Shown here: positions 25,923 to 40,225 of the stretch, piece by piece | Numbering within the stretch: the first letter of the stretch is position 1 | Layout: every line of letters begins with the position of its first letter | From: a plasmid | Sequence record: OW849299.1 | Strand: one strand, 5' to 3' | Length of the DNA: 64,000 nt | Notes under the pieces: model-generated | The model's database searches: none | Told to the model about the DNA's origin: nothing | The model's input: the letters and a program-made list of their open reading frames with translations, nothing else | Made by a program: the position numbers and the translations under genes

Positions 25923-26366
25923 ATGACTGATAACCGTAAGTGCTCGTTTTATATCTACCCGGAGCGCAATGCGGCGGACCGGGTAGCCGACGGCTTTCTT
26001 GAGAAACTGCCTCAGAAAGAGCGTGGCCGCGCGATGCGCGCCATGATGCTCTGTGGTGCCGCGTTGATGAAGCAGGACGAACGCCTGCCGTTCCTGATCG
26101 CTGAATTCCTGACGGAGAGCACCACGATGCAGGATATTCAGCGGATCATCAGCAGTACGCTGCCGCAGCAGGATACAGGAGAAATGGCGCGTCTGGTTGA
26201 GGCGTTTCTGCAGGCCACCGGCGGTGGCAGCAATACGGTGTCGCCGGCAGGCGGCGCTGCGCCGGAAAACAGTCCCGCCGTGGCTCCCGAACCGGCAGCA
26301 CCGGAGGATAAGAATCTGGAAGAAACCCGTAAGAACGTCCAGCATCTGTTCCCGGATGATGATTAA
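25923..26366 (+). CDS. parR: ParR/StbB centromere-binding adaptor.
   Basis: 147 aa immediately downstream of parM, with an acidic C-terminus. Confidence 0.7.
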   Translation: MTDNRKCSFYIYPERNAADRVADGFLEKLPQKERGRAMRAMMLCGAALMKQDERLPFLIAEFLTESTTMQDIQRIISSTLPQQDTGEMARLVEAFLQATGGGSNTVSPAGGAAPENSPAVAPEPAAPEDKNLEETRKNVQHLFPDDD

Positions 26367-26375
26367 GGGGGCTGC

Positions 26376-26939
26376 GTGAAAAAATATGTGCTGTTAACCC
26401 TGACCCTCATCGCCGGCGCCGTGGCAGCAAACCCGGTAACAGCGGCCGGCAATATTGCCGGCGATGTCCAGGCGCAAGCTGCGACTGAAGTGAAAACCGG
26501 GTTTTCACCCGGCGGGACCGCATTAAATCTGGTTCTGGATTCAATCGACCACGCGCAGCATGAGATTCTGGTTGCCGCGTACAGCCTGACCAGTCGTCCT
26601 GTTGCCGGCGCGTTGCGTGCCGCAAAAAAACGGGGCGTATCGGTGGTGGTGGTGGCCGATCGCAAAGCGAACGACAACCGGTACACCGAAGTGAACTTTC
26701 TGGCCAATAACCGCGTGGCGGTGCGGATCAACGATAACTACGAGGCCATGCATGATAAATTCATGGTCTTTGACCGCCGCGCCGTATTGACCGGCTCGTT
26801 TAACTTCAGCGCCAGCGCAGACAGTCGTAATGCGGAAAATGTGGTGCTGATCAGCGGCGCGCCTGCAGTAACTGAAGCCTACGTGAACGAGTTTTCCCGT
26901 TTATGGGACGAAGGAAAGGACGTGGCTCCACGGTACTGA
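26376..26939 (+). CDS. nuc: Phospholipase-D-family periplasmic endonuclease (Nuc-like).
   Basis: Signal peptide, and HxK motif context HDKFMVFD...GSFNFS. Confidence 0.8.
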   Translation: MKKYVLLTLTLIAGAVAANPVTAAGNIAGDVQAQAATEVKTGFSPGGTALNLVLDSIDHAQHEILVAAYSLTSRPVAGALRAAKKRGVSVVVVADRKANDNRYTEVNFLANNRVAVRINDNYEAMHDKFMVFDRRAVLTGSFNFSASADSRNAENVVLISGAPAVTEAYVNEFSRLWDEGKDVAPRY

Positions 26940-26948
26940 CCTACAGCA

Positions 26949-26976
26949 GCGGCAGAAACTCTGCCGCCTGATTTTT
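26949..26976 (+). terminator. Terminator after nuc.
   Basis: gcggcag-aaact-ctgccgc followed by ctgattttt. Confidence 0.5.
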
Positions 26977-26979
26977 AAC

Positions 26980-27056
26980 TTGATTTATATGGCTCATTCG
27001 TCGTATTATCAAGGCTCATTTTTCGGTAGCGCCCCGACTGGCGAAGGAGTAAAACC
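26980..27056 (+). promoter_or_regulatory. CUP-like promoter/5'UTR cassette, copy A (degenerate). It drives the 168-aa ORF and the tandem-HTH regulator.
   Basis: TTGATTtatATGGCTCATTcGtCGTATtAT ... cggtagcgccccgactggcgaaggagt + 6 nt + ATG. Confidence 0.55.
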
Positions 27057-27563
27057 ATGCAATCATTCCCCCTGTTCGTTTCCCGTGTCGTTCCTGTGAT
27101 CACCCTGAGCCATTGTCTGCGGCAGCGGCGCTGGTCCCTGCACAACACGCCATGCCAGATTGACCTGAGATCAGGTTGTCACCTGCGCTCACAGCCTTTC
27201 GGCACGCTATCCAGACGGGAAATAAGCGACCGGCCACCGGCTATGCCCCGCGGTTACTGGTTCAGGCAATGCAGCCGGGATGTCATGTTTACGGGGCGCA
27301 TCGATCAGGCAGATCCTATGAAACAGGTCTATTACAACGAAGGCTGGAGCGGTCCGAACAAGTATACGTTTGAAGTTTATCAGCTGGAGAACGGGAGTTA
27401 CCGGGCGCTGGCCCGCAAATGGAATGGCAAAATCAACAAGGTGCAGCAGGAAACGCAGTACCTGTCTGACACGCGGGAGGGGCTGAAGCACCAGGACTAT
27501 CCCCGCACGCGCCAGGTGAAAATTTTTCTGAATTCAGACTTCTGGGAGAAGGGTAATGATTAA
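27057..27563 (+). CDS. Hypothetical protein. The start is positioned by the RBS cassette, but the N-terminal 85 aa have odd composition. An alternative start is ATG 27318, giving an 82-aa product.
   Basis: ATG lies 7 nt after the aggagt of the cassette. The 3' end overlaps the start of the next gene. Confidence 0.35.
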   Translation: MQSFPLFVSRVVPVITLSHCLRQRRWSLHNTPCQIDLRSGCHLRSQPFGTLSRREISDRPPAMPRGYWFRQCSRDVMFTGRIDQADPMKQVYYNEGWSGPNKYTFEVYQLENGSYRALARKWNGKINKVQQETQYLSDTREGLKHQDYPRTRQVKIFLNSDFWEKGND

Positions 27564-28035
27564 GATGGTTAGCGTCGTTCCGCAGCCGGAAACAGTGAAG
27601 ACGCTCCGGGAAAAAATGGGCATGACTGAAACCGCATTAGGGGCTGTCATGGGGTACGAACTGCGCGCCTGGCAGCGTAAGGAAGCTATCAGCGACGATC
27701 TCAGCCAGTACAACAAGACCAGTCTTCGCCCAGGCGAATATAACATGCTGATGCTGATCGCCGGCGTGCATCCTGATTACCGCCTGAACAGGGCATTCAG
27801 TCCTGATGATATGGTCAAAGATCCCGCCACGGCCGAAGACGTTCGCCGCCTGCGTCTGGCGCTGGGGCTGAAGCACGCTGAAATTGCAGCGCTGTTTGGC
27901 TATAAACCGGCGTCATGGCAGACCAAAGAAAAGGCTGCTCAGCGCGGCGTAAAGCTCAAGACCGGGGAATTCAATTTCCTGTTACTTCTGGCCGGTGAGC
28001 ATCCGTCACTGCAGCTGGTTGAGAAGGCGAAATAA
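27556..28035 (+). CDS. Tandem-HTH DNA-binding regulator (KorC-like). Candidate repressor of the repeated leading-region promoters.
   Basis: Two homologous ~70-aa halves, LREKMGMTETALGAVMGYELRAWQRKE and LRLALGLKHAEIAALFGYKPASWQTKE, each followed by ...LLIAG(V/E)HP. Confidence 0.6.
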   Translation: MIKMVSVVPQPETVKTLREKMGMTETALGAVMGYELRAWQRKEAISDDLSQYNKTSLRPGEYNMLMLIAGVHPDYRLNRAFSPDDMVKDPATAEDVRRLRLALGLKHAEIAALFGYKPASWQTKEKAAQRGVKLKTGEFNFLLLLAGEHPSLQLVEKAK

Positions 28036-28063
28036 GGCCCGCGGCGACCAGAGAGGACCCTTT

Positions 28064-28474
28064 ATGATCACCACACGCCGAATGTTAATGCTGTATGCCT
28101 GCCTTGTGCCCGTAGCCCTGACAGGGTGTGATCTGGCTGATTATTTCCCGAATGTGCCACAGCCCGTGCCCGTGATTTCGCCCGGCTATCAGGTTGATAT
28201 CGATGGCCACCCGGTCCGAATATCAGGATTTGATGACTGTCCGCGGGAAAAAGATGAAGCCCGGCACGCAGCTGCACAAGATGAGAAAGGCTGCATTGTG
28301 CTGTCTGCAGAGCGTTCCGAGGTGAAGGTCAGACTGTATCAGCCAGCCGGCGCCGTCACCGAAACCTGGCGGATCATCCGGGAAAAAGACGCTCGCCAGA
28401 ACGATATTATTCGCCTGCAGCGCCCGAACGGTGCGCTTGTGATGCAAAATTTACAGGGGAAAGAGTCTCCTTAA
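28064..28474 (+). CDS. Lipoprotein (136 aa).
   Basis: Lipobox VALTGC. Its 3' end (NLQGKESP*) is part of a motif repeated upstream of several CUP-like units. Confidence 0.5.
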   Translation: MITTRRMLMLYACLVPVALTGCDLADYFPNVPQPVPVISPGYQVDIDGHPVRISGFDDCPREKDEARHAAAQDEKGCIVLSAERSEVKVRLYQPAGAVTETWRIIREKDARQNDIIRLQRPNGALVMQNLQGKESP

Positions 28475-28497
28475 ACCAGGGAAATAACAAAATTAAC

Positions 28498-28591
28498 TTG
28501 ATTTATATGGCTCATTAGACGTATAATAATTACATCGAAAGGCAATCCGGTCTTTCGACGGTAGCGCCCCGACCGGCGCAGGAGTCACCTT
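28498..28591 (+). promoter_or_regulatory. CUP-like promoter/5'UTR cassette, copy B (complete).
   Basis: -35 TTGATT at 28498, invariant ATGGCTCATTAGACG spacer, -10 TATAAT at 28522, UTR hairpin tcgaaaggcaatccggtctttcga, cggtagcgccccgaccggcgcaggagt, ATG at 28592. Confidence 0.7.
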
Positions 28592-28855
28592 ATGACTGCT
28601 CTCAATTCTCAGCAACAGGCTGATGTTGCCCGCTATATCCGGGAACATGGCAATAAAACCGTTATTTCCCCTGAATGGTCACTTATTTATTTCTCGCTGT
28701 GTCAGTGTGAATTACATCAATCGCATGAAGCCATTATTTTTCATAATGGCCGACCTGCAGGGCTATTTATTCTGAATGAAACAGGCGAGCTCACCGAATT
28801 ATATCTGCTGGGGTCGCTTTCTGACATTCTCACCGCCGCTGCGGTCAACAAATAG
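28592..28855 (+). CDS. Hypothetical leading-region protein (87 aa).
   Basis: First ORF after cassette B. Confidence 0.5.
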   Translation: MTALNSQQQADVARYIREHGNKTVISPEWSLIYFSLCQCELHQSHEAIIFHNGRPAGLFILNETGELTELYLLGSLSDILTAAAVNK

Positions 28856-28876
28856 CTTTCAGGGAGTAAATACACT

Positions 28877-29239
28877 ATGACCATGCAATCAGAACTTGTT
28901 TTTACTGATCCTATGCTCAACGTCGTTATTGCTGAAGTTAAGCGTTTTAATTGCCCGCTTCTTTTTGTCAAAGATCATGGCGTGTATGTGATGGCGGCGA
29001 AAGGTGAGAAAAACAGTAATGGGATGCACAATGTCTGTTACGCCAATGGTTTTAATCCGGATACAACGGATTTTGACGAGCTCTGGGACCGGATGCGTGA
29101 TGCCTGTGGCGGAGATGATTTTTGCGAATCCCTGGAGCTCGATCCGAGGTCGATTGAACTTCTCAGCCGTACCAAACCCTGCCTGAAAATTATGCTTTCA
29201 GAGACGGAACTGGAAGTTATTGCAGGGGGACAGAAATAG
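28877..29239 (+). CDS. Hypothetical leading-region protein (120 aa).
   Basis: Second gene of the operon (RBS agggag). Terminator at 29246-29272: aaagcccg-ttaaat-cgggcttttttat. Confidence 0.5.
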   Translation: MTMQSELVFTDPMLNVVIAEVKRFNCPLLFVKDHGVYVMAAKGEKNSNGMHNVCYANGFNPDTTDFDELWDRMRDACGGDDFCESLELDPRSIELLSRTKPCLKIMLSETELEVIAGGQK

Positions 29240-29360
29240 ACCATAAAAGCCCGTTAAATCGGGCTTTTTTATATTTCACTGTATTTACATCTAGGACAAA
29301 ATGTCCTATTATATATTTGTGGCCGGGCATGGTGCTCAGGTCCCCTAACGAGGGAAATAT

Positions 29361-29810
29361 ATGAAATTTTCAGCAGAAGAACTCAACATTATCCGCCAGG
29401 CGGACGCCATTATTGCCGGTAAAATTACCACAACGGATTTTATCACCGGCGCCGACGCCGCGCGTTCCTTACTGCGGTTTCGTCTTGCTGCAGAACCACG
29501 CGAATCATTCTGCGCGTTCTTTCTTAACTGCCACAACGGCGTGATTGCGTTTGAAGAACTGTTTAAGGGAACTATCAGCAGCGTCACCGTTCATCCGCGT
29601 ATCGTCCTGCAACGCGCCCTGCATCATAATGCCGCCGCCGTGGTACTGGCGCATAACCATCCTTCCGCTAACACTACACCCAGCCAGGCTGACAAGCTGA
29701 TCACCGAGCGTCTGGCGCAGGTGCTGGGGATGGTTGATGTCAAAGTCCTCGATCACCTGATTGTGGGCGGCAGCGATATTTACTCTTTTGCTGAACATGG
29801 TCTGATTTGA
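29361..29810 (+). CDS. radC: RadC-like JAB/MPN domain protein (YeeS family), common in plasmid leading regions.
   Basis: HNHPSANTTPSQADKLITERL matches the RadC HNHPSG...PS.AD motif. Confidence 0.85.
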   Translation: MKFSAEELNIIRQADAIIAGKITTTDFITGADAARSLLRFRLAAEPRESFCAFFLNCHNGVIAFEELFKGTISSVTVHPRIVLQRALHHNAAAVVLAHNHPSANTTPSQADKLITERLAQVLGMVDVKVLDHLIVGGSDIYSFAEHGLI

Positions 29811-29854
29811 TAACCGCGGCCGCACAGTGGTGCGGCCGGCTCTGGAGGCTTGCT

Positions 29855-30121
29855 ATGGGCAATAAATATACCGTGCCGCTTAACGTGGGCGCGATCCGCG
29901 AAAGCTGTTTCCGTCCCGCTGATAAATGGACCCCGCCGACGGGGGATGAACTCCGCTATCTGCTGGAAAATGTGCTCAACCTGAGTCAGGAGGGACTGGC
30001 GCGACATGTCGGCGTGAACGGCAGAACGGTGCGCCGCTGGGTGAACGGAGAAAGTGACATCGCGTATTCCGTCTGGTGCGTCCTTTGCATCGATGCCGGC
30101 TTACCGCCGATCTGGAAATAG
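29855..30121 (+). CDS. HTH-containing small regulator (89 aa) co-transcribed with radC.
   Basis: LSQEGLARHVGVNGRTVRRWVNGE is a helix-turn-helix. GGAGG Shine-Dalgarno upstream of ATG 29855. Confidence 0.5.
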   Translation: MGNKYTVPLNVGAIRESCFRPADKWTPPTGDELRYLLENVLNLSQEGLARHVGVNGRTVRRWVNGESDIAYSVWCVLCIDAGLPPIWK

Positions 30122-30184
30122 CAGCGCAAAACACCGACGCGCAAACGTGCTTCCTGAACGTATCGGATATACGAAGGAAATATT

Positions 30185-30467
30185 ATGAATACTGATAACT
30201 ATTTTTTCAGAGTCCCGGCCACACGCGGAATACAGGGCGGCATAGAACAATACATGCTGACGGTTCCTATGGTCGTGTTACGTCGTATTCTTGCAATGGA
30301 CAATGATGGCGATGTTATGGATCGCAGCCAGCGAGAAGCGAACAAAACGCGGGCCAAAAAAATACGGAATTATGTTGCCGGCGCAACATCAAAACGAGCT
30401 CCCTATATTTTGCCGTCAATTACCGGAAATATTGATAGTCATGTTGAATTCCTTCCCAGCGAACTCT
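30185..30467 (+). pseudogene. 5' part of a DGQHR-domain (DndB-like) protein gene, interrupted by IS1.
   Basis: The N-terminal 94 aa run into the IS1 end. The downstream fragment carries the LFDGQHRALG motif. Confidence 0.6.
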
Positions 30468-31235
30468 GGTAATGACTCCAACTTATTGATAGTGTTTTAT
30501 GTTCAGATAATGCCCGATGACTTTGTCATGCAGCTCCACCGATTTTGAGAACGACAGCGACTTCCGTCCCAGCCGTGCCAGGTGCTGCCTCAGATTCAGG
30601 TTATGCCGCTCAATTCGCTGCGTATATCGCTTGCTGATTACGTGCAGCTTTCCCTTCAGGCGGGATTCATACAGCGGCCAGCCATCCGTCATCCATATCA
30701 CCACGTCAAAGGGTGACAGCAGGCTCATAAGACGCCCCAGCGTCGCCATAGTGCGTTCACCGAATACGTGCGCAACAACCGTCTTCCGGAGCCTGTCATA
30801 CGCGTAAAACAGCCAGCGCTGGCGCGATTTAGCCCCGACGTATCCCCACTGTTCGTCCATTTCCGCGCAGACGATGACGTCACTGCCCGGCTGTATGCGC
30901 GAGGTTACCGACTGCGGCCTGAGTTTTTTAAATGGCGGAAAATCGTGTTGAGGCCAACGCCCATAATGCGGGCGGTTGCCCGGCATCCAACGCCATTCAT
31001 GGCCATATCAATGATTTTCTGGTGCGTACCGGGTTGAGAAGCGGTGTAAGTGAACTGCAGTTGCCATGTTTTACGGCAGTGAGAGCAGAGATAGCGCTGA
31101 TGTCCGGCGGTGCTTTTGCCGTTACGCACCACCCCGTCAGTAGCTGAACAGGAGGGACAGCTGATAGAAACAGAAGCCACTGGAGCACCTCAAAAACACC
31201 ATCATACACTAAATCAGTAAGTTGGCAGCATCACC
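30468..31235 (-). mobile_element. IS1 (768 bp), second copy, in the same orientation as the first. No flanking direct repeat.
   Basis: Ends identical to the first copy. Flanks gcgaactct and gggattctt do not match. insA at 30905-31180 and insB at 30483-30986. Confidence 0.95.
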
Positions 31236-32225
31236 GGGATTCTTAAAATTCCGATGGACGCTGATTTAAAATTATTCGATGGCCAGCACCGTGCGCTGGG
31301 TATTTTTGAATTTGTACGCGATTATTCCAATACGGAAGATACGATCAGCTTGTTGCTTACCGTTGGCCTGCCACTTGAGTTACGCCAGCAGTTTTTCGCT
31401 GATATTAATAACAACGCGAGCAAACCGGCAGCGGCGATCAGTATGGCATATAACAACAATGATCCGGTCAACCAGCTGGCAATGCATCTGGCCCGAACCG
31501 TCACCGGGCTGGCGGGCACAGTGGATTTTGAACACAACGTGGTCCCGGCGAAAAGCTCACGGCTGATCAGCTTTAAAGCACTGAACGATGCGACGAAAAA
31601 AATGCTCAACCTGCGGGCCAACAGCATTCCCTCGACGCAACAGCGTGATATGGCAGAAAAGCTCTGGACTGCCTGGGCACAGGCGATGCGCTGGAATGAT
31701 ATTGCCCAGGATGATATCGCTGCGGAGTACCGTCAGGAGGCGCTGGGACTGCATGGCATCATGATAAATGCGATCGGTATGGCAACGGCCAGGATGTTAC
31801 GGCACAGAACACCTGAAAGCATCGAGAACCTTCTGGCCTGTGCGGAAAACGGAGACAACGGTTTTCATTATCGGGAGTCGTTTGTACCTGAGTGCTGGGA
31901 AGGGAAGTGTGTTGATCCGGAGACTGGCACCATTAAAACTGACCGGCGGGCGCTTGAAGCAACGGCTGAAGCGCTGCAAAAGCTGATAGACCCGTTCGCA
32001 GATGCGCTGTGGTTGCGTGCTTATCTGCCAGTTGAAGAGGCGAGTGATACGGCATTACTGAAATATGCTGCTGACATCGAGAGTTATAAGCAGCGCACAG
32101 CCGTGCCGATGATCAATATCGTGGAGAAGCTGAAGGCGCTGGGTGACGGCGAACCGCAGTTCAGAGCGTCGGTGCTGGCTTCCCGTGAGGGGCTAAGCCG
32201 CTATCTGGCCGGGGCTGAAGGCTGA
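31236..32225 (+). pseudogene. 3' part of the DGQHR-domain (DndB-like) protein gene.
   Basis: Reading frame GFLKIPMDADLKLFDGQHRALG... continues directly from the IS1 end. DGQHR motif and DndB-like central region. Confidence 0.6.
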
Positions 32226-32737
32226 CGCGGTGGTTGCCGCCTGCAGGGCAATACGGGCATCGAACCCGTATTGCCCTGAAACGCGCTGAGCCGCTCTCTG
32301 GGCGCGCATTTAAAAAACCTGTACCCATCATCGTTTTTATGTCTTTGACGAGTCCTGCCCCCTATTCTGGCCTTTTCTGATGTGATCCCGCCCTGGTGTC
32401 TGCAAGTTAACTTAATTTTGACGCCCGCACAGCGTGTCTTCCCTGTTCATTTCTGCTCAGTTGCCGGCGTTTTCTGGCTGGCCTGTCGTACTAAAACACC
32501 TCTGGGCCCCTTCGGCTCCTGCCCGTCGGGCAGTCGTCAGCCACACTCCGCTAGCCAGGCAAAGCCTGGCAGCTCCGCCGAACCCCCTGCGGGGTTTCGG
32601 GCTATCGCTAGTGTCTGATGCCTGAACCCCTGCACCATGCCGGCAAAGCACCTTCATCGGGCTGATGGGGATCTGAAAAGCAAAATTTACAGGGAAAGGA
32701 GTTCAGGAAAAAACAAAGAAAATTAATCAGATAACGC

Positions 32738-32832
32738 TTGATTGTTATGGCTCATTAGACGTATAATGATCACATCGAAAGGCAATAAGGCTTTTCGCGG
32801 TAGCGCCCCGACTGGCGCAGGAGTAACAAATT
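32738..32832 (+). promoter_or_regulatory. CUP-like promoter/5'UTR cassette, copy C (complete).
   Basis: TTGATTgttATGGCTCATTAGACGTATAAT + hairpin + cggtagcgccccgactggcgcaggagt + ATG at 32833. Confidence 0.7.
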
Positions 32833-33012
32833 ATGAGTAAAGCACTGACCCCCTCCCAGCTTAAAGCTGAACTGGAAACGCAGAAAGATGCGCTGCTGAA
32901 GGCGTGCCTGTATGCCCTCAACGAAATCCCTAACCGTCGTTTAAGTGGCCCGTATGCGTCCACGTATGCGCTGGCCGAGCAGGTCAGTAAACTGCTTCAG
33001 CGCTGCAAATAA
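32833..33012 (+). CDS. Small protein (59 aa), not in the ORF track.
   Basis: MSKALTPSQLKAELETQKDALLKACLYALNEIPNRRLSGPYASTYALAEQVSKLLQRCK. ATG 7 nt after the cassette aggagt. Confidence 0.45.
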   Translation: MSKALTPSQLKAELETQKDALLKACLYALNEIPNRRLSGPYASTYALAEQVSKLLQRCK

Positions 33013-33084
33013 TCATTGATGGGCTGGCATTGCCAGCCCTGTTCACCCCTTACGGTAGCGCCCCGCATGGCGCAGGAGTCTGAA
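33013..33084 (+). promoter_or_regulatory. Internal cassette, copy D: a perfect hairpin plus the UTR/RBS module, with no promoter.
   Basis: gggctggca-t-tgccagccc then cggtagcgccccgcatggcgcaggagt then ATG at 33085. Confidence 0.6.
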
Positions 33085-33945
33085 ATGTCATCTGAAAAAA
33101 CTCTCCCGTCGGTCGATCTGATGTCCTGCCAGCATGGCGGTGAAGTGATCCCGTCCATAGCTATTGAGCGCATTATCTCGTTGCGGAATGAAGGTATTCG
33201 CGTCTATCTCGACGGCATAGACAAGCTGCGAAAAGCGCGCGATCTGATGCAGCAGGCCGGAGGCTGTCAGTACCTGTATGACTACGACAAAGCCGTAGAG
33301 AGCGCGATCAAATGGAGCGACACCAGACCAGACCAGGCCGAAACGGCTATTTCCCGCGTTATCGACGGAAAAATCTGGGATCGGCTGATGTCGGAAACCG
33401 GCATGTATACGCTGATGAGCAACAAACAACGTCAGGAATGGGATCGGCAGGTGGCAGGCGAGGAAATGCCGCCGATAACGCTGGAGAACGTTATGAGTAC
33501 GTTCCGGCACCTGAACGCAAGCAAGGCCGATACTTTCACGCAAGGGCTGATTGATATCTTTAAATCCCTGTCGTGGGATTATAAAACCAATAACCCCTGC
33601 ATGTTTGGCAAGCGTATCATCATCGCGCCGTTGCTCGATGTCTGGCGCAGTAGCTGGGTGCGCTTCAGCTCAGACGGGCACACCAAAATTGACGATCTGG
33701 CGCGGCCGTTCTACGTGCTGGACGGGCGTAACGTGCCTGATTACCGCGTTTCTGACGGTGCCAAACTGGATGCCTTTTTCAGTGAAAACCAGTTCAACGG
33801 TAAGGTGTTCGAGTGTGATTACTTCAGCGTGCGATATTACAAAAAGGGCAGCGCGCACATTACGTTTAAACGCCCGGAGCTGGTTGAGAAGATCAATAAT
33901 CTGGTTGCCAGTCACTATCCCGGAATGTTACCCCCTCGCGTGTAA
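33085..33945 (+). CDS. Hypothetical leading-region protein (286 aa).
   Basis: Start set by the RBS cassette. The ORF-track version has an N-terminal extension in the same frame. Confidence 0.55.
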   Translation: MSSEKTLPSVDLMSCQHGGEVIPSIAIERIISLRNEGIRVYLDGIDKLRKARDLMQQAGGCQYLYDYDKAVESAIKWSDTRPDQAETAISRVIDGKIWDRLMSETGMYTLMSNKQRQEWDRQVAGEEMPPITLENVMSTFRHLNASKADTFTQGLIDIFKSLSWDYKTNNPCMFGKRIIIAPLLDVWRSSWVRFSSDGHTKIDDLARPFYVLDGRNVPDYRVSDGAKLDAFFSENQFNGKVFECDYFSVRYYKKGSAHITFKRPELVEKINNLVASHYPGMLPPRV

Positions 33946-34030
33946 TGCAGACGGCAGGCCGCATTTGCGGCCTGAAATATAAACAGGGAAAGGAAGTATT
34001 CCCCGGCCTGAAAAAATCATGCCGGGCATG

Positions 34031-34134
34031 TATTTATTGCTTGATTAATATGGCTCATTAGACGTATAATAATCACATCGAAAGGCAATGAGGCTTTTCG
34101 CGGTAGCGCCCCGACTGGCGCAGGAGTAATAAAT
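34031..34134 (+). promoter_or_regulatory. CUP-like promoter/5'UTR cassette, copy E (complete).
   Basis: TTGATTaatATGGCTCATTAGACGTATAAT + tcgaaaggcaatgaggcttttcg + cggtagcgccccgactggcgcaggagt + ATG at 34135. Confidence 0.7.
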
Positions 34135-34473
34135 ATGGCTATTCAATCCCTTCAGTTCCGTAACGGCTCCGTTTCTCTTGGTGATGTTTTTGTTTCCAGC
34201 TGGGGTTATGAGCAGACAAATACCTGTTTTTATCAGGTGATCGCCCTGCGCGGTAAGAAAACCGCCGTACTGCGCCGCATCGCTGCGCAGCAGGTGAAAG
34301 CAGACAGTGCAATGTCTGGCGAGTTAAAGCCGGTATTGAACGACTTTAAAGGCGAACCCGTGACCCGTCGCATCTGTGAAAACCATGAGCATCCGTCTGT
34401 CAGCATTGACGAGTACGAACAGGCTTATAAGACCGATCCTAACGAAAGCCATTTTTACAGCACCTGGGGCTGA
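34135..34473 (+). CDS. Hypothetical leading-region protein (112 aa).
   Basis: ATG positioned by the cassette. Confidence 0.5.
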   Translation: MAIQSLQFRNGSVSLGDVFVSSWGYEQTNTCFYQVIALRGKKTAVLRRIAAQQVKADSAMSGELKPVLNDFKGEPVTRRICENHEHPSVSIDEYEQAYKTDPNESHFYSTWG

Positions 34474-34570
34474 CCGCCTGCTACGCCCCGCAAGGGGCGT
34501 ATAGTCGAAGACTTATTCAACCAAAACGTGAATACTATGCGAAATAACAAGGCGCTCAGGACGCAGATAC

Positions 34571-34801
34571 ATGGCGGAAACAGTTTATCAGGCGCGGAGG
34601 CGTTTTTACCTTCTCCGTTTTCGGCGCAGTCGTAACCCGGACACACTGGAAAAAATGTACGAATCCATGCGGGATCGTGGACAGGTGCCGCCGGAGGACA
34701 CCGAGGCTTTTGAGGCTGCCGCCGACCATCGCCGCGCAGAGCTGGCATCGGGACGCATCTGGGATAAGATCCCGCCGCATGTCTGGCAGTATGTAAAATA
34801 A
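34571..34801 (+). CDS. Hha/YmoA-family small nucleoid-associated modulator (76 aa), the leading-region copy.
   Basis: FEAAADHRRAELASGRIWDKIPPHVWQYVK aligns with Hha [30 protein letters not shown]. Terminator agcgcccctacacggggcgttttttt at 34806-34830. Confidence 0.7.
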   Translation: MAETVYQARRRFYLLRFRRSRNPDTLEKMYESMRDRGQVPPEDTEAFEAAADHRRAELASGRIWDKIPPHVWQYVK

Positions 34802-34833
34802 TCACAGCGCCCCTACACGGGGCGTTTTTTTGC

Positions 34834-34913
34834 TTGCATATATGGCTCATTAGACGTATAATGTTTTTACTGATTCAAATCAGTACCTTCCTAAACAGCC
34901 TTACAGGTGCATT
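34834..34913 (+). promoter_or_regulatory. CUP-like promoter, copy F: promoter core only, with a different UTR.
   Basis: TTGCATatATGGCTCATTAGACGTATAAT. UTR carries the ctgattcaaatcag hairpin. Confidence 0.6.
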
Positions 34914-35027
34914 ATGACCTCTTCTGAAATCCTCCATAACCTCCCTCAGATTATCACGGCCGTGGCCGCCCTCATTACAGCCATTACCGGGCTGATTAAA
35001 GTCATGAAGGATAAAGGTAAGGACTGA
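34914..35027 (+). CDS. 37-aa hydrophobic peptide with a basic C-terminus (Ldr/type-I-toxin-like). Candidate small membrane toxin or regulator.
   Basis: MTSSEILHNLPQIITAVAALITAITGLIKVMKDKGKD. Resembles the LdrD core LAAPILAGIITAAIVSWW. Confidence 0.35.
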   Translation: MTSSEILHNLPQIITAVAALITAITGLIKVMKDKGKD

Positions 35028-35098
35028 ACCGCCGCAGGGGGCGACAGCCCCCTGCATCCCTAACCGGCAGCGCCCCGACTGGCGCAGGAGTAAAAAAA
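35028..35098 (+). promoter_or_regulatory. Internal cassette, copy G: a perfect hairpin plus the UTR/RBS module.
   Basis: gcagggggc-gaca-gccccctgc then cggcagcgccccgactggcgcaggagt then GTG at 35099. Confidence 0.6.
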
Positions 35099-35335
35099 GT
35101 GACAACGCTGCATATTCGAGAAATTCCCACTGATGGAGCGCCGCCTATCTGTGCAGGCCGCTCAATCTCAGATGATGACCTTTGCGCCTCATGCCAGCAT
35201 CTCGACTATCGCCCTGGGCACCTCAGCGCCTGCCTGCTGTCAGGTTGCGGGCGTGACGACTGGCCTTCAGAACTGGATGCAAACGGCTACAGCGTTGCCT
35301 GTAGCAGCTATGAGCGTGAAAAATCGCTTGATTAA
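35099..35335 (+). CDS. Cys-rich small protein (78 aa, GTG start), possibly zinc-binding.
   Basis: Motifs CAGRS...CASCQH...CLLSGC. Its last five codons (KSLD*) are supplied by the -35 region of cassette H. Confidence 0.45.
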   Translation: MTTLHIREIPTDGAPPICAGRSISDDDLCASCQHLDYRPGHLSACLLSGCGRDDWPSELDANGYSVACSSYEREKSLD

Positions 35336-35419
35336 TATGGCTCATTAGACGTATAATTATCACATCGAAAGGCATCCGGTCTTTCGCGGCAGCGCCCCGA
35401 CTGGCGCAGGAGTTTTACA
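35328..35419 (+). promoter_or_regulatory. CUP-like promoter/5'UTR cassette, copy H (complete).
   Basis: TTGATTaatATGGCTCATTAGACGTATAAT + tcgaaaggcatccggtctttcg + cggcagcgccccgactggcgcaggagt + ATG at 35420. Confidence 0.7.
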
Positions 35420-35830
35420 ATGCACGGTAACGTAAATGAAATTTGCGCAAGGCTTCTCGATAGTTTTGATCCACAGCAGCGGATCAGCCTGCTGATCTGG
35501 ACTGCTGAAGATGTCCATGACTGCACCAGTGATATGAACCTCACTGACGATGAGGCCGAAGCCGTTCTGGCAGAAATCGCGGAATGCAGTTCACACAGCC
35601 GTTATGGCGTCGGAAAAGATACCGTCTGGAGCCTGGCAAAGCAGGTGCGCGAAGATGCCGCCCGCGATCGAAAAATAGAGGTCAATGCCGAGGCGCTGCA
35701 AAAAGTCGTGGCGCTGGCGGCGCAGTTTATCCGGCTGGAAGAAATCCAGTCTGGTGAAGGAGCTGCACGCCGACTTTATCCGCAGGAGTCTGAGGCGCTG
35801 GAGTGCATCACGAAGGTGATTAACGGCTAA
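35420..35830 (+). CDS. Hypothetical acidic leading-region protein (136 aa).
   Basis: ATG positioned by the cassette. Confidence 0.5.
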   Translation: MHGNVNEICARLLDSFDPQQRISLLIWTAEDVHDCTSDMNLTDDEAEAVLAEIAECSSHSRYGVGKDTVWSLAKQVREDAARDRKIEVNAEALQKVVALAAQFIRLEEIQSGEGAARRLYPQESEALECITKVING

Positions 35831-35891
35831 TTCACGCAGTAACGCAGCGAACTTTCACGGTAGCGCCCCGACTGGCGCAGGAGGAAAAAAC
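35831..35891 (+). promoter_or_regulatory. Internal UTR/RBS cassette, copy I.
   Basis: cacggtagcgccccgactggcgcaggaggaaaaaac then ATG at 35892. Confidence 0.6.
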
Positions 35892-36197
35892 ATGTCCCAG
35901 AATGAAGCCTATTACGACACGCTGGCCCTGATTGAAAAGGGGCAATGGTGTTTCGGCAGTATGGACGAAGAAAACGAAGAGCGGGCAATCAAGGCCGCTA
36001 AGGCGCTGGCGCTGTTTGCGCGCCTGAATGAGCAGGACTGCGACGGACACCCGGTTTCCGAAATCATCGTTGATTTTATCGCTAACCTGATGCACCTGGG
36101 GGAAGCGATAAATTTTCGTGTGCTCGATGAAGAAAGCGCGGTGATCCCGTTGGTCAGGATCGCCGCCGTACACTTTAACGCTGAAACAAAGTCATAG
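35892..36197 (+). CDS. Hypothetical acidic leading-region protein (101 aa).
   Basis: ATG positioned by the cassette. Terminator-like hairpin cccgcctg-aaaatatt-caggcaggcggg at 36264-36300. Confidence 0.5.
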   Translation: MSQNEAYYDTLALIEKGQWCFGSMDEENEERAIKAAKALALFARLNEQDCDGHPVSEIIVDFIANLMHLGEAINFRVLDEESAVIPLVRIAAVHFNAETKS

Positions 36198-36302
36198 TAA
36201 TCATGTGAATCAGAAGGGGGCAGGCGTGATCCTGCCCCCAAAAATGGACAGGGGAAAGAGTTCTCCCGCCTGAAAATATTCAGGCAGGCGGGAATTTTTT
36301 GC

Positions 36303-36397
36303 TTGATTAATATGGCTCATTAGACGTATAATAATCACATCGAAAGGCAATCCGGTCTTTCGACGGTAGCGCCCCGACTGGCGCAGGAGTACAGAAA
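36303..36397 (+). promoter_or_regulatory. CUP-like promoter/5'UTR cassette, copy J (complete).
   Basis: TTGATTaatATGGCTCATTAGACGTATAAT + tcgaaaggcaatccggtctttcga + cggtagcgccccgactggcgcaggagt + ATG at 36398. Confidence 0.7.
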
Positions 36398-36838
36398 ATG
36401 TCTACTGAACTGAATCAACCCGCCATCACTGCACGCATTATCCCCAATAACCGCCGCATGGCCTTTCTGCCACGTCTGTTCGGCGCCTGGTATCTCACAG
36501 GTGAGGCCGGTGTCTACAACCTCGCACGCTCTCTCTGCGTCGATTATCAAGGCGGTTCCTGGGAGTTCGTCGAACTGTCTTGCGGTAGCGGCTTCATGTA
36601 CCCACTGAGCGCAGAGCGCTTCACGGTATCGGTTAGCGGTAACTGGTTCGAAGGGGAACTGTCCGCAGAAGCTACCGGTATCGTGCTGACCCTGTTCACC
36701 CTGAACCACATGATCTGGCACGCACATGATGAAGGCTATCAGCACATCTGCGACATGCTGATCACCCAGCAGGAAAAGCTCAAATTATATGCCGACCAGC
36801 ACGCCGAAGCCGGTTTGATTTACCGCGCGATTGACTGA
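36398..36838 (+). CDS. klcA: KlcA/ArdB-family anti-restriction protein.
   Basis: LPRLFGAWYLTGEAGVYNLARSLCVDYQGGSWEFVELSCGSGFMYP...GELSAEATGIVLTLFTL...AGLIYRAID aligns along its full length with IncP KlcA. Confidence 0.85.
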   Translation: MSTELNQPAITARIIPNNRRMAFLPRLFGAWYLTGEAGVYNLARSLCVDYQGGSWEFVELSCGSGFMYPLSAERFTVSVSGNWFEGELSAEATGIVLTLFTLNHMIWHAHDEGYQHICDMLITQQEKLKLYADQHAEAGLIYRAID

Positions 36839-36881
36839 AACGGCGGCCCCCGTGAGGGGGCCAATACTGACAGGGGGAAAA

Positions 36882-37166
36882 ATGTTAACACTAACTGATA
36901 TTCGCGCCAGCAATACGGTGCTGGTTACGGAATTTGGCGGCGTGCGTGCTGTGCATTTCTGTCTGCATGAAAAATTAAGCGGTAGCGACAACGATCTGTG
37001 GTTTCCGCTTGCCAATGGAGCCGACCTGTTCGAGGCGCTGGAAAGCATTATGTGCATCAATTTTGCCGCTGCTAACGTTGTCTCGCTGGAGTTCCTGCGG
37101 CAGAACGGGAAGTGCAAAGACTACCGGATCACCTACAACAAGGCCAAATTCAAGCCATTAGGTTAG
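36882..37166 (+). CDS. Hypothetical leading-region protein (94 aa).
   Basis: ATG at 36882 after the hairpin ggcccccgtgagggggcc. Confidence 0.45.
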   Translation: MLTLTDIRASNTVLVTEFGGVRAVHFCLHEKLSGSDNDLWFPLANGADLFEALESIMCINFAAANVVSLEFLRQNGKCKDYRITYNKAKFKPLG

Positions 37167-37230
37167 ATGTCTGGCATCATTTGATGTTCATATTTGAACA
37201 AAATTAAATAAAAAAAATACGTCTGATGAG

Positions 37231-37320
37231 TTGATAAAATGGCTCATTAGACGTATAATTATTACATCGAAAGGCAGTTGAGTCTTTCGCGGTAGCGCCC
37301 CGACTGGCGAAGGAGTTGAA
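37231..37320 (+). promoter_or_regulatory. CUP-like promoter/5'UTR cassette, copy K (complete, 1 nt shorter in the spacer).
   Basis: TTGATAaaATGGCTCATTAGACGTATAAT + tcgaaaggcagttgagtctttcg + cggtagcgccccgactggcgaaggagt + ATG at 37321. Confidence 0.7.
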
Positions 37321-37542
37321 ATGAAAGAAGCAGACCAAAAAAAAGTGAATGCCGTAATGGCAATTGCTGATTATCTCGGTGTGAAAAATCAAATCGAGGT
37401 GATCGAATACTCAGCCGAATCAGTGCAGGTTGAGTGGCGAAATCCTAAAACAAAACAGCTTATTCATCGTGATTACACTTTTGCAAATTCCTTTGTAAAA
37501 GACTTTGAAAAAGCCCTGAAATCGAACGTGAAGTTTTACTGA
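37321..37542 (+). CDS. Hypothetical small protein (73 aa).
   Basis: ATG positioned by the cassette. Confidence 0.5.
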   Translation: MKEADQKKVNAVMAIADYLGVKNQIEVIEYSAESVQVEWRNPKTKQLIHRDYTFANSFVKDFEKALKSNVKFY

Positions 37543-37613
37543 AAAAGAGGGGGAGAAATCCCCCTTAATCCTCCCATTTTTTACTGATAAACATCAAATA
37601 TATGAGGTGTATT

Positions 37614-38048
37614 ATGTGGAAACGTGGCGAAAACAAAGTGATTCTGATGGGGCGTGCTGGCAAAGATGCAGAAGTGCGTTACACCCCAAACAGAACGGCC
37701 ATTGCGAGCCTGACGCTGGCTACAGAAATCAGCTACAGCGACAACGAAGGGAAGGAGCAAAAAGAAACGGAATGGCATGATATTGTCATTTTTGGAAAGA
37801 AAGCCGAAGCAGCTGGGAAGTACTTCAAAAAGGGTATGATGCTGTATTTTGTCGGGCGCATTCGTAATAACAAATGGCAAGGGACAGACGGCAAAATGCG
37901 CAGCAATAAGGAAATTGTGATCGATAATAACGGCGAAATGCAGATGCTGCCGGGAGCTGGGCCACGTAACACCAGTGCAGAAGGCCAGGGAGGCATTGAA
38001 AATCATGATGAACCGCCGTTCCCGGATATGAATGATTACCCGCAGTGA
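37614..38048 (+). CDS. ssb: Single-stranded DNA-binding protein (plasmid SSB).
   Basis: MWKRGENKVILMGRAGKDAEVRYTPNRTAIASLTLAT...TEWHDIVIFGKKAE...DEPPF, with the acidic DxxPF tail. OB-fold pattern of SSB. Confidence 0.9.
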   Translation: MWKRGENKVILMGRAGKDAEVRYTPNRTAIASLTLATEISYSDNEGKEQKETEWHDIVIFGKKAEAAGKYFKKGMMLYFVGRIRNNKWQGTDGKMRSNKEIVIDNNGEMQMLPGAGPRNTSAEGQGGIENHDEPPFPDMNDYPQ

Positions 38049-38103
38049 GTATTTGAGTTAGAACGGCCCGCAGGACGCGGGCCGCCAATCCAGAGGGGGG
38101 AGT

Positions 38104-38415
38104 ATGAATATCAGTGAACAATATCGGGTGGCGGTCGTCAGTACCGGCCATGTAAAAAAAGAAGACGCGGAACTACTGGACAAGGTCTGTAACGATGACT
38201 TGTCCGGTCAAGGTTTGTTCTGGATCGAGAAAAATCGCTATGGGTGGATATTGCGTATTTCTGCTACTGAACAATGGCGAGTGGAATTAACCAGGGCGGG
38301 GATCAGTGCAAGTGCTTTGGATAATATAGCCGCGTTAAATGGTGCCGGGTTCGACTGGATTTGGTTTGACCGGGATGCGGAACAGGTGCCAGAACTGACC
38401 GTTTGGGAGTGGTAA
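38104..38415 (+). CDS. Hypothetical protein (103 aa) downstream of ssb.
   Basis: ORF in the same operon. Confidence 0.45.
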   Translation: MNISEQYRVAVVSTGHVKKEDAELLDKVCNDDLSGQGLFWIEKNRYGWILRISATEQWRVELTRAGISASALDNIAALNGAGFDWIWFDRDAEQVPELTVWEW

Positions 38416-38454
38416 ACCGGTTAAAAATTTGCCTCGAAAAGGGGCATTTTTTTC

Positions 38455-38547
38455 TTGCCTGCAATGGCTCATTAGACGTATAATAATCGTGAAGTTTAAA
38501 AGTGGATATTGATTAAAACGCTCTGTAAATAACGTGGAGAGAATATT
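38455..38547 (+). promoter_or_regulatory. CUP-like promoter, copy L: promoter core only, with a different UTR.
   Basis: cTTGCCtgcaATGGCTCATTAGACGTATAAT, then a distinct 60-nt leader, then ATG at 38548. Confidence 0.6.
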
Positions 38548-39084
38548 ATGGCGGCCTTATACCCTTATGAGGTTTATACCCTTATTGTGTCAGAATTAAT
38601 CGTAAGCCATTTTAATGATGTCGCTATGGTATATCCGGGAAGCGAAGAAATTAAAAAGAACTACGACAGTGAATTAAGTGCTGTACAGGTAGTTAATGGC
38701 ATCAGAGAAAAACTGATTGAAGATGGTGTTATACAGTGCGAACAGTGCCCACTGCTATCCGAGTGGGATGAGAACAAGGTTATCAACCAGCTAATTAAAG
38801 ATTACCGCCTGATTCTCAATCGTGACTATGAACTAAACCGTGTTCGTCAGCAGCTGGCCCCGGAGCTGATCGCACAGATAGAAAACTGGAAAGAGCAGAA
38901 GTATTCCGATTCTGCGAAGGAATACGAGGTGCTCTATGAAACCATCAACATCAACGGAAAGGAGGTTACAGGCAAACTAAACGTAGTTGCAGTAAGTCGC
39001 TTTGATGCTGTTTTCATCGTAGGGCAGCGTCACGCTAACGATAACTTTTTGGTTCTGGATGTGAAGGAGGTGATGAATCATTGA
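38548..39084 (+). CDS. Hypothetical protein (178 aa) next to oriT.
   Basis: ORF after cassette L. Confidence 0.5.
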   Translation: MAALYPYEVYTLIVSELIVSHFNDVAMVYPGSEEIKKNYDSELSAVQVVNGIREKLIEDGVIQCEQCPLLSEWDENKVINQLIKDYRLILNRDYELNRVRQQLAPELIAQIENWKEQKYSDSAKEYEVLYETININGKEVTGKLNVVAVSRFDAVFIVGQRHANDNFLVLDVKEVMNH

Positions 39085-39143
39085 AATCCAGAAAAGGTGC
39101 CGGATTGCGCCAACAATCCGGCTGGGTAGGCAATTTAAATTGT

Positions 39144-39293
39144 GAGGTTCAAAATGCCATTGTGGATTATACACTATGCTGAAGATGTCGCAAACGGAGT
39201 GCAAACAAAGTCGCATCCGATGAACGCAGCGCAATGGGATCACTTCCGTTTCTGGTTGGCAGTGTTCCGGCGGATTAAAGAAGCCGCAATGTA
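39144..39293 (+). CDS. Possible 49-aa small ORF followed by a strong terminator (aggggcgctgtatgcgcccctttttaat at 39300-39333).
   Basis: RBS context tgtgaggttcaaaATG is identical to the one in front of parM. Confidence 0.25.
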
Positions 39294-39585
39294 ATCTGTA
39301 ACTGTCTCAGGGGCGCTGTATGCGCCCCTTTTTAATATCCTTGCCCGGACTCCTTTCCCTGTAAATTTATCGGGATCAAGGGCGGATCGTGGCCCTGAAC
39401 GTGCGCACCATTGAGCGCTGCATCGCAGCGGAACCGGAAAATTTTTTTCCGGCCAATGAGTGCCCTTGTCACCGGAACGGTGACAAGTATGCACGCACAA
39501 TTACACGAACAGGCAGCACCCATGCCCGGCCTGACAGGCCGGGAGCTATATCATAATGTGGGATGCTATATGTGAAAGGTGAAGG

Positions 39586-39951: not shown

Positions 39952-40135
39952 ATGCCCTCCCAATAATGTCAAAATCGCCATGCCGAACCGGAGAAAATCG
40001 ACCCAGGCTATTCGGGTGATTTTACATGATGCCCGGCACGATTCAATTGCTCTGCCTGCCAGGCCCTTCGCTGCTGGCTTTCAAACCTCGCCGATGGTAG
40101 AATTCAATGAGGTATTTAAGTACGGGACAAGATGT

Positions 40136-40176: not shown

Positions 40177-40225
40177 GTCTTGGTCAGGGCAAGCCCCGAC
40201 ACCCCCTAACGAGGTTAGCTATCTG

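Follow-up and report, generated by a model that had tools for sequence, protein, structure and literature searches.

What controls the genes that lie next to the transfer origin of pOXA-48, and why is the small protein Orf20 needed to keep this plasmid? pOXA-48 is the main vehicle of OXA-48 carbapenem resistance. The window studied here, a 64,000-nucleotide stretch of sequence record OW849299.1, belongs to a pOXA-48-type IncL plasmid, and the 11.7 kb around the family of repeated promoter/leader cassettes that is our subject is 100% identical to pOXA-48-type IncL plasmids of Klebsiella and other Enterobacterales (an annotated relative is typed IncL/M, MOBP and MPF_I). Two 2025 Nature Communications papers (PMC12365149, PMC12361523) reported that orf20 is essential for pOXA-48 maintenance, and did not identify the targets or the mechanism of its product. 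Baffert et al. could delete orf20 only with complementation, and recipients of the deleted plasmid filamented and lost the plasmid; Calvo-Villamanan et al. observed plasmid loss when orf20 was silenced by CRISPR interference. We found that the repeated cassettes are real and far beyond chance, and we propose, at a probability of about 0.62, that they make up an autoregulated, zygotically induced leading-region regulon built on modular cassettes, with Orf20 as the candidate repressor, analogous rather than homologous to the CUP/ArdK systems of other conjugative plasmids. This reading is supported, not proven, and within it we infer both the binding and the repression by Orf20. It gives the question of the essential Orf20 a concrete hypothesis, with nine defined promoters, a 15-nucleotide (nt) site and a predicted regulon.

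An invariant block within the spacer of nine promoters

The core 15-mer ATGGCTCATTAGACG occurs in eight exact copies and one with two mismatches (at 26989), all on the + strand between 26989 and 38478, against a chance expectation of 1.7 matches even at ≤3 mismatches (three more matches at 3 mismatches, at 9644, 30720 and 51805, lie outside the promoter set and were treated as chance). Each copy sits in a + strand sigma-70 promoter, nine in all from 26980 to 38484, directly ahead of the -10 hexamer (ATGGCTCATTAGACG-TATAAT, invariant in eight copies), and a promoter consensus scan made independently of the core alignment lists 8/9 of the cassettes as promoter-like. As an earlier note on this DNA had proposed, we aligned the copies (on the -10) and built a motif; among the eight canonical copies, 588 pairwise base comparisons over core plus TATAAT gave 0 differences. 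Differences amount to 39-54% of compared positions in the -35 hexamer, in the next three bases (N3) and in the six bases past the -10, and this sharp divergence at the flanks indicates that the conserved block is a 21-nt island rather than the centre of a long young duplication.

An invariance of this kind might have no regulatory meaning, and reflect a recent duplication of the promoter module or its homogenisation by gene conversion; the copies share a strand and all fall within 12 kb, conditions favourable to conversion, and the leaders behind them are also highly similar. We consider this very improbable, since the invariant block is only 21 nt long between such divergent flanks, the core persists in related plasmids in which Orf20 is 85-89% identical and the -35 boxes and leaders have changed, and unrelated backbones show the same design in other sequences (see below).

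The nine promoters differ in small ways. The spacer is 18 nt long in 8/9 of them and 17 nt in cassette 8, and the copy at 26989 has TATTAT as its -10 and lacks the first of the two leader hairpins described below. We looked for hidden symmetry in the pOXA-48 core and saw none, nor is it palindromic by inspection; it shares TCAT..GA.G (8/11 positions) with a palindrome found in an IncX3 plasmid, which we take as a hint only. The earlier note had credited all nine promoters with an invariant core, and the set stands as real and beyond chance, with eight members invariant and one (26989) carrying two mismatches. Its -35 sequence TTGATT is present in 6/9 copies, the others having CTTGCA/TTGCAT, TTGATA and TTGCCT, and its coordinates are right within 1-3 nt apart from the fourth promoter, whose -35 starts at 34041 and not at 34031. 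An imperfect dyad that it had drawn from -35 to +8 is not conserved, being 7-9/10 complementary in five copies and 3-4/10 in the other four, where 3.8 is expected by chance.

A structured leader follows most of the promoters

The second repeated element, a 27-nt module of the 5' untranslated region (UTR) with the sequence CGGTAGCGCCCCGACTGGCGCAGGAGT, has ten occurrences at ≤2 mismatches against 0 expected, in agreement with an earlier count of ten genes with a near-identical module; the start codon, previously given as an ATG 5-8 nt after the module, lies 4-8 nt past its GGAGT and is a GTG in one case. A full cassette reads -35 / N3 / core / TATAAT / 6 nt / A(+1)TCGAAAGGC-loop-G[T/C][C/T]TTTCG / CGGTA-GCGCC-CCGACT-GGCGC-AGGAGT / 4-8 nt / start codon. 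Seven promoters carry this conserved 5' leader with its two hairpins, of which hairpin 2 is a 5-bp GC hairpin directly 5' of the Shine-Dalgarno (SD) sequence AGGAG, and hairpin 2 with its SD also precedes three internal genes. The modules are therefore separable, the core being joined to unrelated leaders at 34842 and 38464 and hairpin 2 with SD standing alone at 33053, 35065 and 35858, and the twelve copies counted in the earlier note are thus nine promoters (seven with the UTR module) and these three UTR-only sites.

We tested the leader structure for covariation in twelve leaders from three lineages. Hairpin 1, which starts at +2/+3, shows compensatory double changes at 4/8 pairs (G-C/C-G, A-U/G-C, G-C/A-U) with 99% of cells paired, and the covariation of the whole two-hairpin structure was reached by 0/500 shuffles, slid controls being only 38-47% paired. 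Variation in hairpin 2 consists of G-U wobbles and one exchange of G-C to U-A in a diverged Klebsiella plasmid (L002). Minimum-energy folds give a hairpin from +2/+3, then hairpin 2, then an unpaired SD and AUG, and the unrelated leader of the promoter at 34842 likewise begins with a hairpin. On the other strand the frequent G-U pairs of hairpin 1 would turn into C-A mismatches, which argues that the structure acts in the + sense RNA and not in the transferred DNA strand. In E. coli mRNA decay, 5'-terminal stem-loops shield transcripts from 5'-end-dependent attack by RNase E, and for this reason hairpin 1 may serve as an mRNA stabiliser.

Published RNA data place the starts of these leaders. 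From small-RNA sequencing of pNDM-HK, an IncM plasmid, Kong et al. 2018 (PMC5880898) described four ~55-nt 'sRNAs' (small RNAs), NDM-sR5a-d, with starts mapped by tobacco acid pyrophosphatase (TAP)-dependent rapid amplification of 5' cDNA ends (5'-RACE) and single Northern bands; NDM-sR5d was mapped upstream of klcA, the word 'promoter' occurs nowhere in the text, and the role guessed at was partitioning or stability. We find that these RNAs are the leaders of cassettes 2, 3, 4 and 7, NDM-sR5a, c and d being identical over 53-55 nt to the beginnings of the leaders at 28534, 34077 and 36339, and NDM-sR5b having 2 differences from the leader at 32774. Their mapped 5' end is an A exactly 7 nt past TATAAT, which gives positions of -12/-7 and -36/-31 for the hexamers and -27/-13 for the core, and upholds the earlier description of the cassettes as promoter/5' UTR units. 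Each RNA ends at the SD, 4-8 nt ahead of the start codon and without a U-tract, and a terminator scan found none at the ends of NDM-sR5-type RNAs. We therefore read NDM-sR5a-d, published as independent sRNAs in an account that has no operator, no other copies and no link to the downstream genes (PMC5880898), as the stable 5' part of mRNA leaders.

Conversely, the ~55-nt transcripts might themselves be functional as a multicopy family of trans-acting sRNAs, for example a sponge or regulator, to which the downstream genes are incidental. Kong et al. did see discrete ~55-nt bands with primary 5' ends for four copies, the leader sequence is better conserved than the downstream genes, and hairpin 2 is kept even on unrelated backbones. 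The RNAs nevertheless end at the SD just before a start codon with no U-tract terminator, hairpin 2 with its SD is also found inside operons, promoterless and directly before genes, two promoters with the same core have unrelated leaders, and no Rfam family matches: a search of 26000-41000 at E≤1 returned nothing at the cassettes, and only mir-5984 (at a palindrome in traI) and a weak rimP match elsewhere. We thus regard this explanation as improbable, and note that the roles of sRNA and mRNA leader are not mutually exclusive.

The cassettes lie in the leading region

The origin of transfer (oriT) was located through the pCTX-M3/IncI1-type nic sequence ACATCTTG|T, taken from PMC8125031. Its match, with an adjoining inverted repeat of 18-nt arms, lies at 40127-40176 on the - strand (nic 40135-40127), so that the - strand is the transferred strand (T-strand) and the sequence below 40127 enters the recipient first, which makes it the leading region as the earlier note had claimed. 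For the + strand genes at 27000-39100 the T-strand is the template, an orientation that suits leading-strand entry, and all nine promoters sit between nuc and oriT, repeated ahead of successive operons in the manner of CUP elements.

This setting is shared with the Frpo/ssi elements of F and IncI1 leading regions, which have the same T-strand template and the same kinds of genes (ssb, klcA/ardB, small open reading frames (ORFs)), and the cassettes might accordingly be promoters of that type, folding in the entering T-strand and transcribed before complementary-strand synthesis. IncI1 and F plasmids have such single-stranded DNA promoters ahead of klcA and ardA (PMC12672017). However, when the - strand DNA of five cassettes was folded we obtained two short leader hairpins and a weak -35/+1 stem with the core in its loop, no long stem holding both -35 and -10, and z-scores of +0.5 to -2.8; moreover the G-U pairs of hairpin 1 are C-A mismatches in the T-strand, and the intergenic spaces measure only about 100-200 nt. 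A single-stranded promoter is hence hardly credible here, and the pOXA-48 cassettes differ from Frpo/ssi in being ordinary duplex promoters with no long promoter-mimicking hairpin.

Two observations concern the surroundings of oriT. The mobA coding sequence annotated in RefSeq (175 amino acids (aa), window 40016-40543) runs over the nic site and its inverted repeat, and relatives have a NikA-like MobA of 103 aa; the true start is probably the ATG at 40227, with GAGG before it. Within the 5' part of the relaxase gene an inverted repeat at 40608-40659 (23-nt arms, 91% complementary, 6-nt loop) gives rise to the mir-5984 match, which is spurious and appears on both strands.

Orf20 is the best candidate for the repressor

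We consider Orf20 the best candidate for a protein acting on the core, because its gene stands behind the first, variant cassette and is essential. The operon orf19-orf20 is driven by cassette 1, as it is in L002, and the presumed regulator is thus encoded behind a copy of its own putative site. If Orf20 were lost, up to nine promoters would escape repression, which would account for the essentiality of orf20. The neighbouring orf19 could be deleted with no phenotype, and its low insertion count in transposon sequencing was ascribed to a polar effect on orf20 (PMC12365149). Orf19 is conserved in L002 (42% identity) and not in Serratia, IncI2 or IncX3 systems, and Orf20 is the sole operon protein common to all compared lineages. 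A homologue is encoded in about 5% of PLSDB records (3,729/72,556).

The Orf20 sequence falls into two repeats of about 75 aa, with 34% identity between them (E=2e-14), and each repeat matches 80-aa proteins of IncX3 and IncI2 plasmids (E=5e-15 to 5e-20). An AlphaFold2 model of the protein (mean predicted local distance difference test, pLDDT, 89.8; predicted template modelling score, pTM, 0.87) contains two four-helix helix-turn-helix (HTH) domains, and together with the repeat alignment it confirms the tandem HTH architecture that had been suggested for the product of 27556-28035. Using phmmer against solved proteins, the only match below E=0.01 was the anti-CRISPR-associated (Aca) repressor Aca10 (7xi5), with E=0.0026 over 40 residues. 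Foldseek listed, in this order, two chains of 2ox6 (an uncharacterised Shewanella protein), Aca10, Aca1, HigA2, the controller protein C.Kpn2I, HipB and Aca2, with probabilities of 0.8-0.99 for Aca10, Aca1 and Aca2, yet all listed top-match E-values were >0.1. The similarity is too weak to establish Orf20 as a member of the Aca family.

Related plasmids keep the design and change the site

Comparison loci were collected via Orf20 homology. Across five IncL/M-like lineages (the window, L003, L008/9, L013 and L015, with Orf20 85-100% identical) 24 distinct promoters keep the core, with the consensus ATGGCTC[A/g]TT[A/c]G[A/t]CG-TATAAT, and their -35 boxes drift from TTGATT to TTGCTG, TTGTAA and CTTTTT. 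The same base stands in all 24 at core positions G4, T6, C7, T10, G12, C14 and G15. The orf19-orf20 promoter is always the odd one, with no hairpin 1 and with TTCG[T/C]CG, a weaker -10 or both, in L003, L008/9, L013 and L015 as well. In L002, a syntenic diverged Klebsiella plasmid whose Orf20 homologue is 45% identical, we found five promoters of the form GGTATGTCTTTTGTCG-TATAAT, a degenerate first copy before the orf19/20 operon and a leader of like design, again with two hairpins. Two Serratia plasmids with an unrelated Rep_3/VirB backbone (L005 and L017, Orf20 homologues 42% and 39%) each have three promoters with GA[T/C]ATCAA[A/G]CGATG-TATAAT between regulator and relaxase, with a stem resembling hairpin 2 ahead of the start codon in 2/3 and 3/3 cases, respectively.

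The single-domain homologues, of 80 aa, are accompanied by sites of another kind. In the IncI2 plasmid that carries mcr-1 (L012) the spacer of three promoters is a perfect palindrome, ATACATCTAaaTAGATGTAT, and in IncX3 pNDM-HN380 (L011) two promoters, of which one lies upstream of the regulator's operon, have ACCATCA-N2-4-TGATGG abutting TATAAT; in both plasmids the regulator would be controlled from its own site if the HTH gene is read through from the promoter of a DnaJ gene. Thus symmetric spacers pair with single-domain proteins and asymmetric spacers with tandem proteins, which is what would be predicted for a dimer and for a built-in pseudo-dimer, respectively. Moreover, a site that is invariant within a plasmid and different between plasmids of the same hosts points to a plasmid-encoded reader and not to a host factor or RNA polymerase. 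The scan of related plasmids that the earlier note had envisaged, made here through Orf20 homologues, therefore turned out in favour of its operator: the core is kept in the five IncL/M-like lineages and their 24 promoters, the IncI2 spacer differs, other invariant spacers accompany diverged Orf20 proteins, and the spacer behaves, as far as sequence can tell, like a plasmid-specific operator.

The same spacer could be the site of a factor other than Orf20, such as Orf19, the Hha/H-NS pair, the HTH protein whose gene lies upstream of parM, or a MerR-like activator remodelling a slightly overlong 18-nt spacer. Such a factor would suit the 18-nt spacer of 8/9 copies and the expression of the leaders in established cells, the plasmid does encode further regulators, and the binding of Orf20 to the core is a deduction. 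We judge it unlikely all the same, because KorC has a different and single operator, Orf19 is absent from Serratia, IncI2 and IncX3 systems of the same architecture, nucleoid proteins do not read specific 15-nt sites that vary by lineage, the Orf20 family is indicated by the way in which palindromes go with single-domain and asymmetric sites with tandem proteins, and death or plasmid loss upon removal of orf20 is in keeping with a repressor of strong promoters.

Several points nevertheless weigh against a regulon under Orf20. Its action at the nine promoters is read from sequence patterns, and an 18-nt spacer with an internal protein site could also be compatible with an activator. Since the loci were found through Orf20 homology, the co-occurrence of protein and cassette is partly by construction, and at two loci with tandem homologues, in Xenorhabdus (L016) and Rouxiella (L018), we saw no repeated spacers, with contig ends or insertion sequence (IS) elements intervening. 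The similarity of Orf20 to Aca10 is weak, both in phmmer (E=0.0026 over 40 residues) and in Foldseek (E>0.1), and leaders folded singly reach only modest z-scores (+0.7 to -2.3). The leaders were found in established transconjugants, so that repression at steady state would be at most partial, and the model does not account for a discrete ~55-nt RNA that ends just before the AUG.

Some further features of the compared loci are worth recording. The IncI2 plasmid (L012, pWF-5-19C_mcr-1) has three long repeats of up to about 450 nt (6419-6867, 7337-7599 and 9373-9822), each with a GC-rich upstream part, then a promoter with the palindromic spacer, then a leader that starts with ATCGAAAGG, the nine bases with which the pOXA-48 leaders also open; here an ssi/Frpo-like element, in the form of the GC-rich part, might be joined to a repressible duplex promoter. 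Hairpin 2 with SD, in the design ACGGTA-CGCC-CCGAnn-GGCG-...AGGAG, precedes genes at 9149-9181 and 10872-10905 of L005 and at 1932, 3663 and 3993 of L017, and in a Pantoea locus (L019, 1585-1620 and 1809-1844) it takes the form GCCGC-aca-GCGGC-AGGAG; to go by these occurrences, this translation-initiation module is older and wider spread than any one operator. In IncX3 (L011 1353-3284) and IncI2 (L012 7595-9246) the Orf20-type HTH gene closes a conserved series, after genes for a DnaJ-domain protein and for uncharacterised proteins of about 183 aa and about 90 aa. In Serratia (L005 9182-10435) it is downstream of the regulator that the DnaJ gene is found. Homology links the 183-aa protein of the Serratia plasmid to that of IncI2 (27% identity, E=6e-21). 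VirBR of IncX3, which we considered as a counterpart of Orf20, is a different protein of 85 aa whose elements run helix-strand-strand-strand-helix, and has no HTH.

A proposed mechanism and its relation to known systems

We suggest that the cassette is assembled from three modules. In module A, a sigma-70 promoter whose -35 varies and whose TATAAT is perfect, with an 18-nt spacer in between, the 15 promoter-proximal bases of the spacer (-27 to -13) would form the operator; these promoters fire at the predicted +1, as the 5'-RACE in pNDM-HK showed (PMC5880898). Orf20, as a tandem-HTH 'built-in dimer', would bind the operator and occlude RNA polymerase, and the position of orf20 behind cassette 1, with its variant operator and weaker -10, would provide negative autoregulation. 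Module B, the 5'-terminal hairpin at +2/+3, may stabilise the mRNA 5' end, and module C, hairpin 2 with SD, may offer a ribosome-binding site in a standard context. In a new recipient devoid of Orf20 the promoters would fire once the entering strand has been made double-stranded, giving a burst of KlcA, SSB, the Hha-like protein, the DUF4942 protein and many small proteins, until Orf20 builds up and silences the set.

Among the systems compared (CUP/ArdK, IncP Kor and phage Aca), the closest functional match appears to be the phage Aca circuits, in which a small XRE-type HTH protein is encoded, as Orf20 would be, in the operon it represses, the operator overlaps a strong anti-defence promoter and an RNA motif begins right after the transcription start site (TSS), the position that hairpin 1 occupies here. 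Several anti-defence operons can also be under a single Aca (PMC13551039). The known Aca proteins sit as homodimers on inverted repeats, whereas Orf20 is a fused tandem with an asymmetric site; no inverted repeat is seen by inspection in the pOXA-48 core, and palindromes are present in the single-domain IncI2 and IncX3 relatives. The settings differ too, a phage acr operon for Aca and a plasmid leading region with up to nine promoters for pOXA-48. The RNA motif of Aca2 mimics its operator. We saw no resemblance by eye between the leader hairpins and the pOXA-48 operator, so that an Aca2-style mimic is not evident.

The earlier note had called the cassettes CUP-like, and the analogy holds for the layout: in the CUP systems of IncN pKM101/R46 (ArdK/ArdR) and IncW R388 (ArdK), repeated promoter elements similarly precede successive leading-region operons that include anti-restriction genes, and are bound by a plasmid repressor that also controls its own gene (PMC6289460). 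It does not extend to the sequences, as the CUP repeats of R46 are about 300 nt long with sequences of their own, none like the IncL cassette (by eye, not by alignment), and homology of Orf20 to ArdK or ArdR was rejected (BLASTP E=22 and E=0.83). In pOXA-48 the conserved site is a 15-nt block in the promoter spacer followed by a conserved structured leader. The KorA/KorB/KorC regulons of IncP RK2 and IncU RA3 also consist of plasmid repressors with operators in many backbone promoters, and there too kor loss is lethal to the host; klcA is Kor-regulated in RK2 and stands behind the cassette core in pOXA-48.

Full-text literature searches for the core and UTR sequences gave no relevant paper, and in the literature on pOXA-48/pCTX-M3 leading-region promoters, IncL single-stranded DNA promoters and master repressors we found no earlier account of the regulon; the architecture had been only half noticed, as NDM-sR5a-d, and its kind is that of a repressor-controlled leading-region regulon. 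More tentatively, and at somewhat less than even odds, we suggest that Orf20-type HTH proteins with spacer operators are a widespread, unrecognised master switch for establishment and anti-defence genes that works like the phage Aca circuits, in IncL/M (blaOXA-48, blaNDM-1), IncX3 (blaNDM-5), IncI2 (mcr-1) and other enterobacterial plasmids. On this proposal the regulator gene would have been duplicated in tandem in IncL/M, and divergence of the two halves and of the half-sites would have produced the asymmetric 15-nt operator; a further, post-transcriptional level of control may come from the leader (5' hairpin, hairpin 2 and SD), to which the same protein might bind, as in the case of Aca2. 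Provided that the comparative pattern is upheld, the leading regions of IncX3 and IncI2 plasmids, which spread blaNDM-5 and mcr-1, are governed by this same regulator-operator logic. A repressor whose loss destabilises the plasmid is moreover a possible anti-plasmid target, and the cassette itself is a compact, portable expression module.

Genes behind the cassettes

Operon extents were deduced from gene spacing and terminator-like sites, and the cassettes, the internal copies of hairpin 2, orf19 and orf20 lie on the + strand. Cassette 1 (26980-27056), which we identified by core/UTR search and -10 alignment and take to be the autoregulatory variant, reads TTGATT-tat-ATGGCTCATTcGtCG-TATtAT, lacks hairpin 1 and has hairpin 2 with SD at 27024-27050. 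It drives orf19 (27057-27563; 168 aa, no Pfam domain), the co-transcribed orf20 (27556-28035; tandem XRE-type HTH protein) and possibly the lipoprotein-like orf21. Cassette 2 (28498-28591; promoter 28498-27, predicted TSS 28534, hairpins 1 and 2) leads into an 87-aa gene and a DUF3085 gene, and its leader at 28534-28588 is NDM-sR5a. Cassette 3 (32738-32832; TSS 32774, two-hairpin leader, near NDM-sR5b) precedes a 59-aa gene and the DUF4942 gene (33085), the latter with its own promoterless hairpin 2 and SD at 33053-33084. The two-hairpin leader of cassette 4 (34041-34134; TSS 34077, leader start as NDM-sR5c) precedes a 112-aa gene and probably also serves the Hha/YmoA-family gene at 34571.

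Cassette 5 (34833-34913) has core and TATAAT with another -35 and an unrelated leader with its own 5'-terminal hairpin (ACTGATtcaaATCAGT), an arrangement kept in L003 and L015. Behind it come a 37-aa hydrophobic ORF (34914-35027) and a 78-aa gene (GTG at 35099), which is preceded by an internal hairpin 2 with SD at 35065-35098. The 37-aa ORF (MTSSEILHNLPQIITAVAALITAITGLIKVMKDKGKD), behind the promoter at 34842, is unannotated in the RefSeq relative, and its leader and start are kept in L003 and L015. A small membrane protein or a toxin may be encoded here, which would make the ORF a candidate for the toxicity upon orf20 loss. Cassette 6 (35328-35419; TSS 35364, two-hairpin leader) drives a DUF1380-like gene and a 101-aa gene (35892), with an internal hairpin 2 and SD before the latter at 35858-35891. 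Cassette 7 (36303-36397; TSS 36339, two-hairpin leader starting as NDM-sR5d) drives the anti-restriction gene klcA (36398-36838) and a 94-aa gene, and cassette 8 (37230-37320; -35 TTGATA, 17-nt spacer, TSS 37266, two-hairpin leader) a 73-aa gene, ssb and a DUF5983 gene. Cassette 9 (38455-38547), with core and TATAAT, the -35 TTGCCT and an unrelated, unstructured leader, precedes a 178-aa gene that is nearest to oriT.

The earlier note had placed klcA, ssb and radC under common control, and this is consistent with the position of klcA and ssb behind cassettes 7 and 8. The genes orf24/radC-korC (29361-30121) are driven from a separate promoter, TTTACA-N17-TATTAT at 29284-29312, whose spacer holds the palindrome TAGGACAAAATGTCCTA, the single KorC operator of pOXA-48 according to Baffert et al. 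We found the KorC operator type TAGGACA-N3-TGTCCTA only at this orf24-korC promoter and in none of the cassette sequences. KorC, a regulator that is essential as Orf20 is and has its own, different and single palindromic operator elsewhere, was thereby ruled out as the core binder, and radC belongs to a separate circuit, radC and korC therefore forming an autoregulated unit of their own amid the cassette regulon. Downstream of korC a DGQHR-domain gene (30185-32225) is interrupted by IS1 (about 30483-31180). The weak core-like 15-mers at 9644 and 30720 match one another exactly (CAGGCTCATAAGACG), which makes a second copy of IS1 near 9644 likely.

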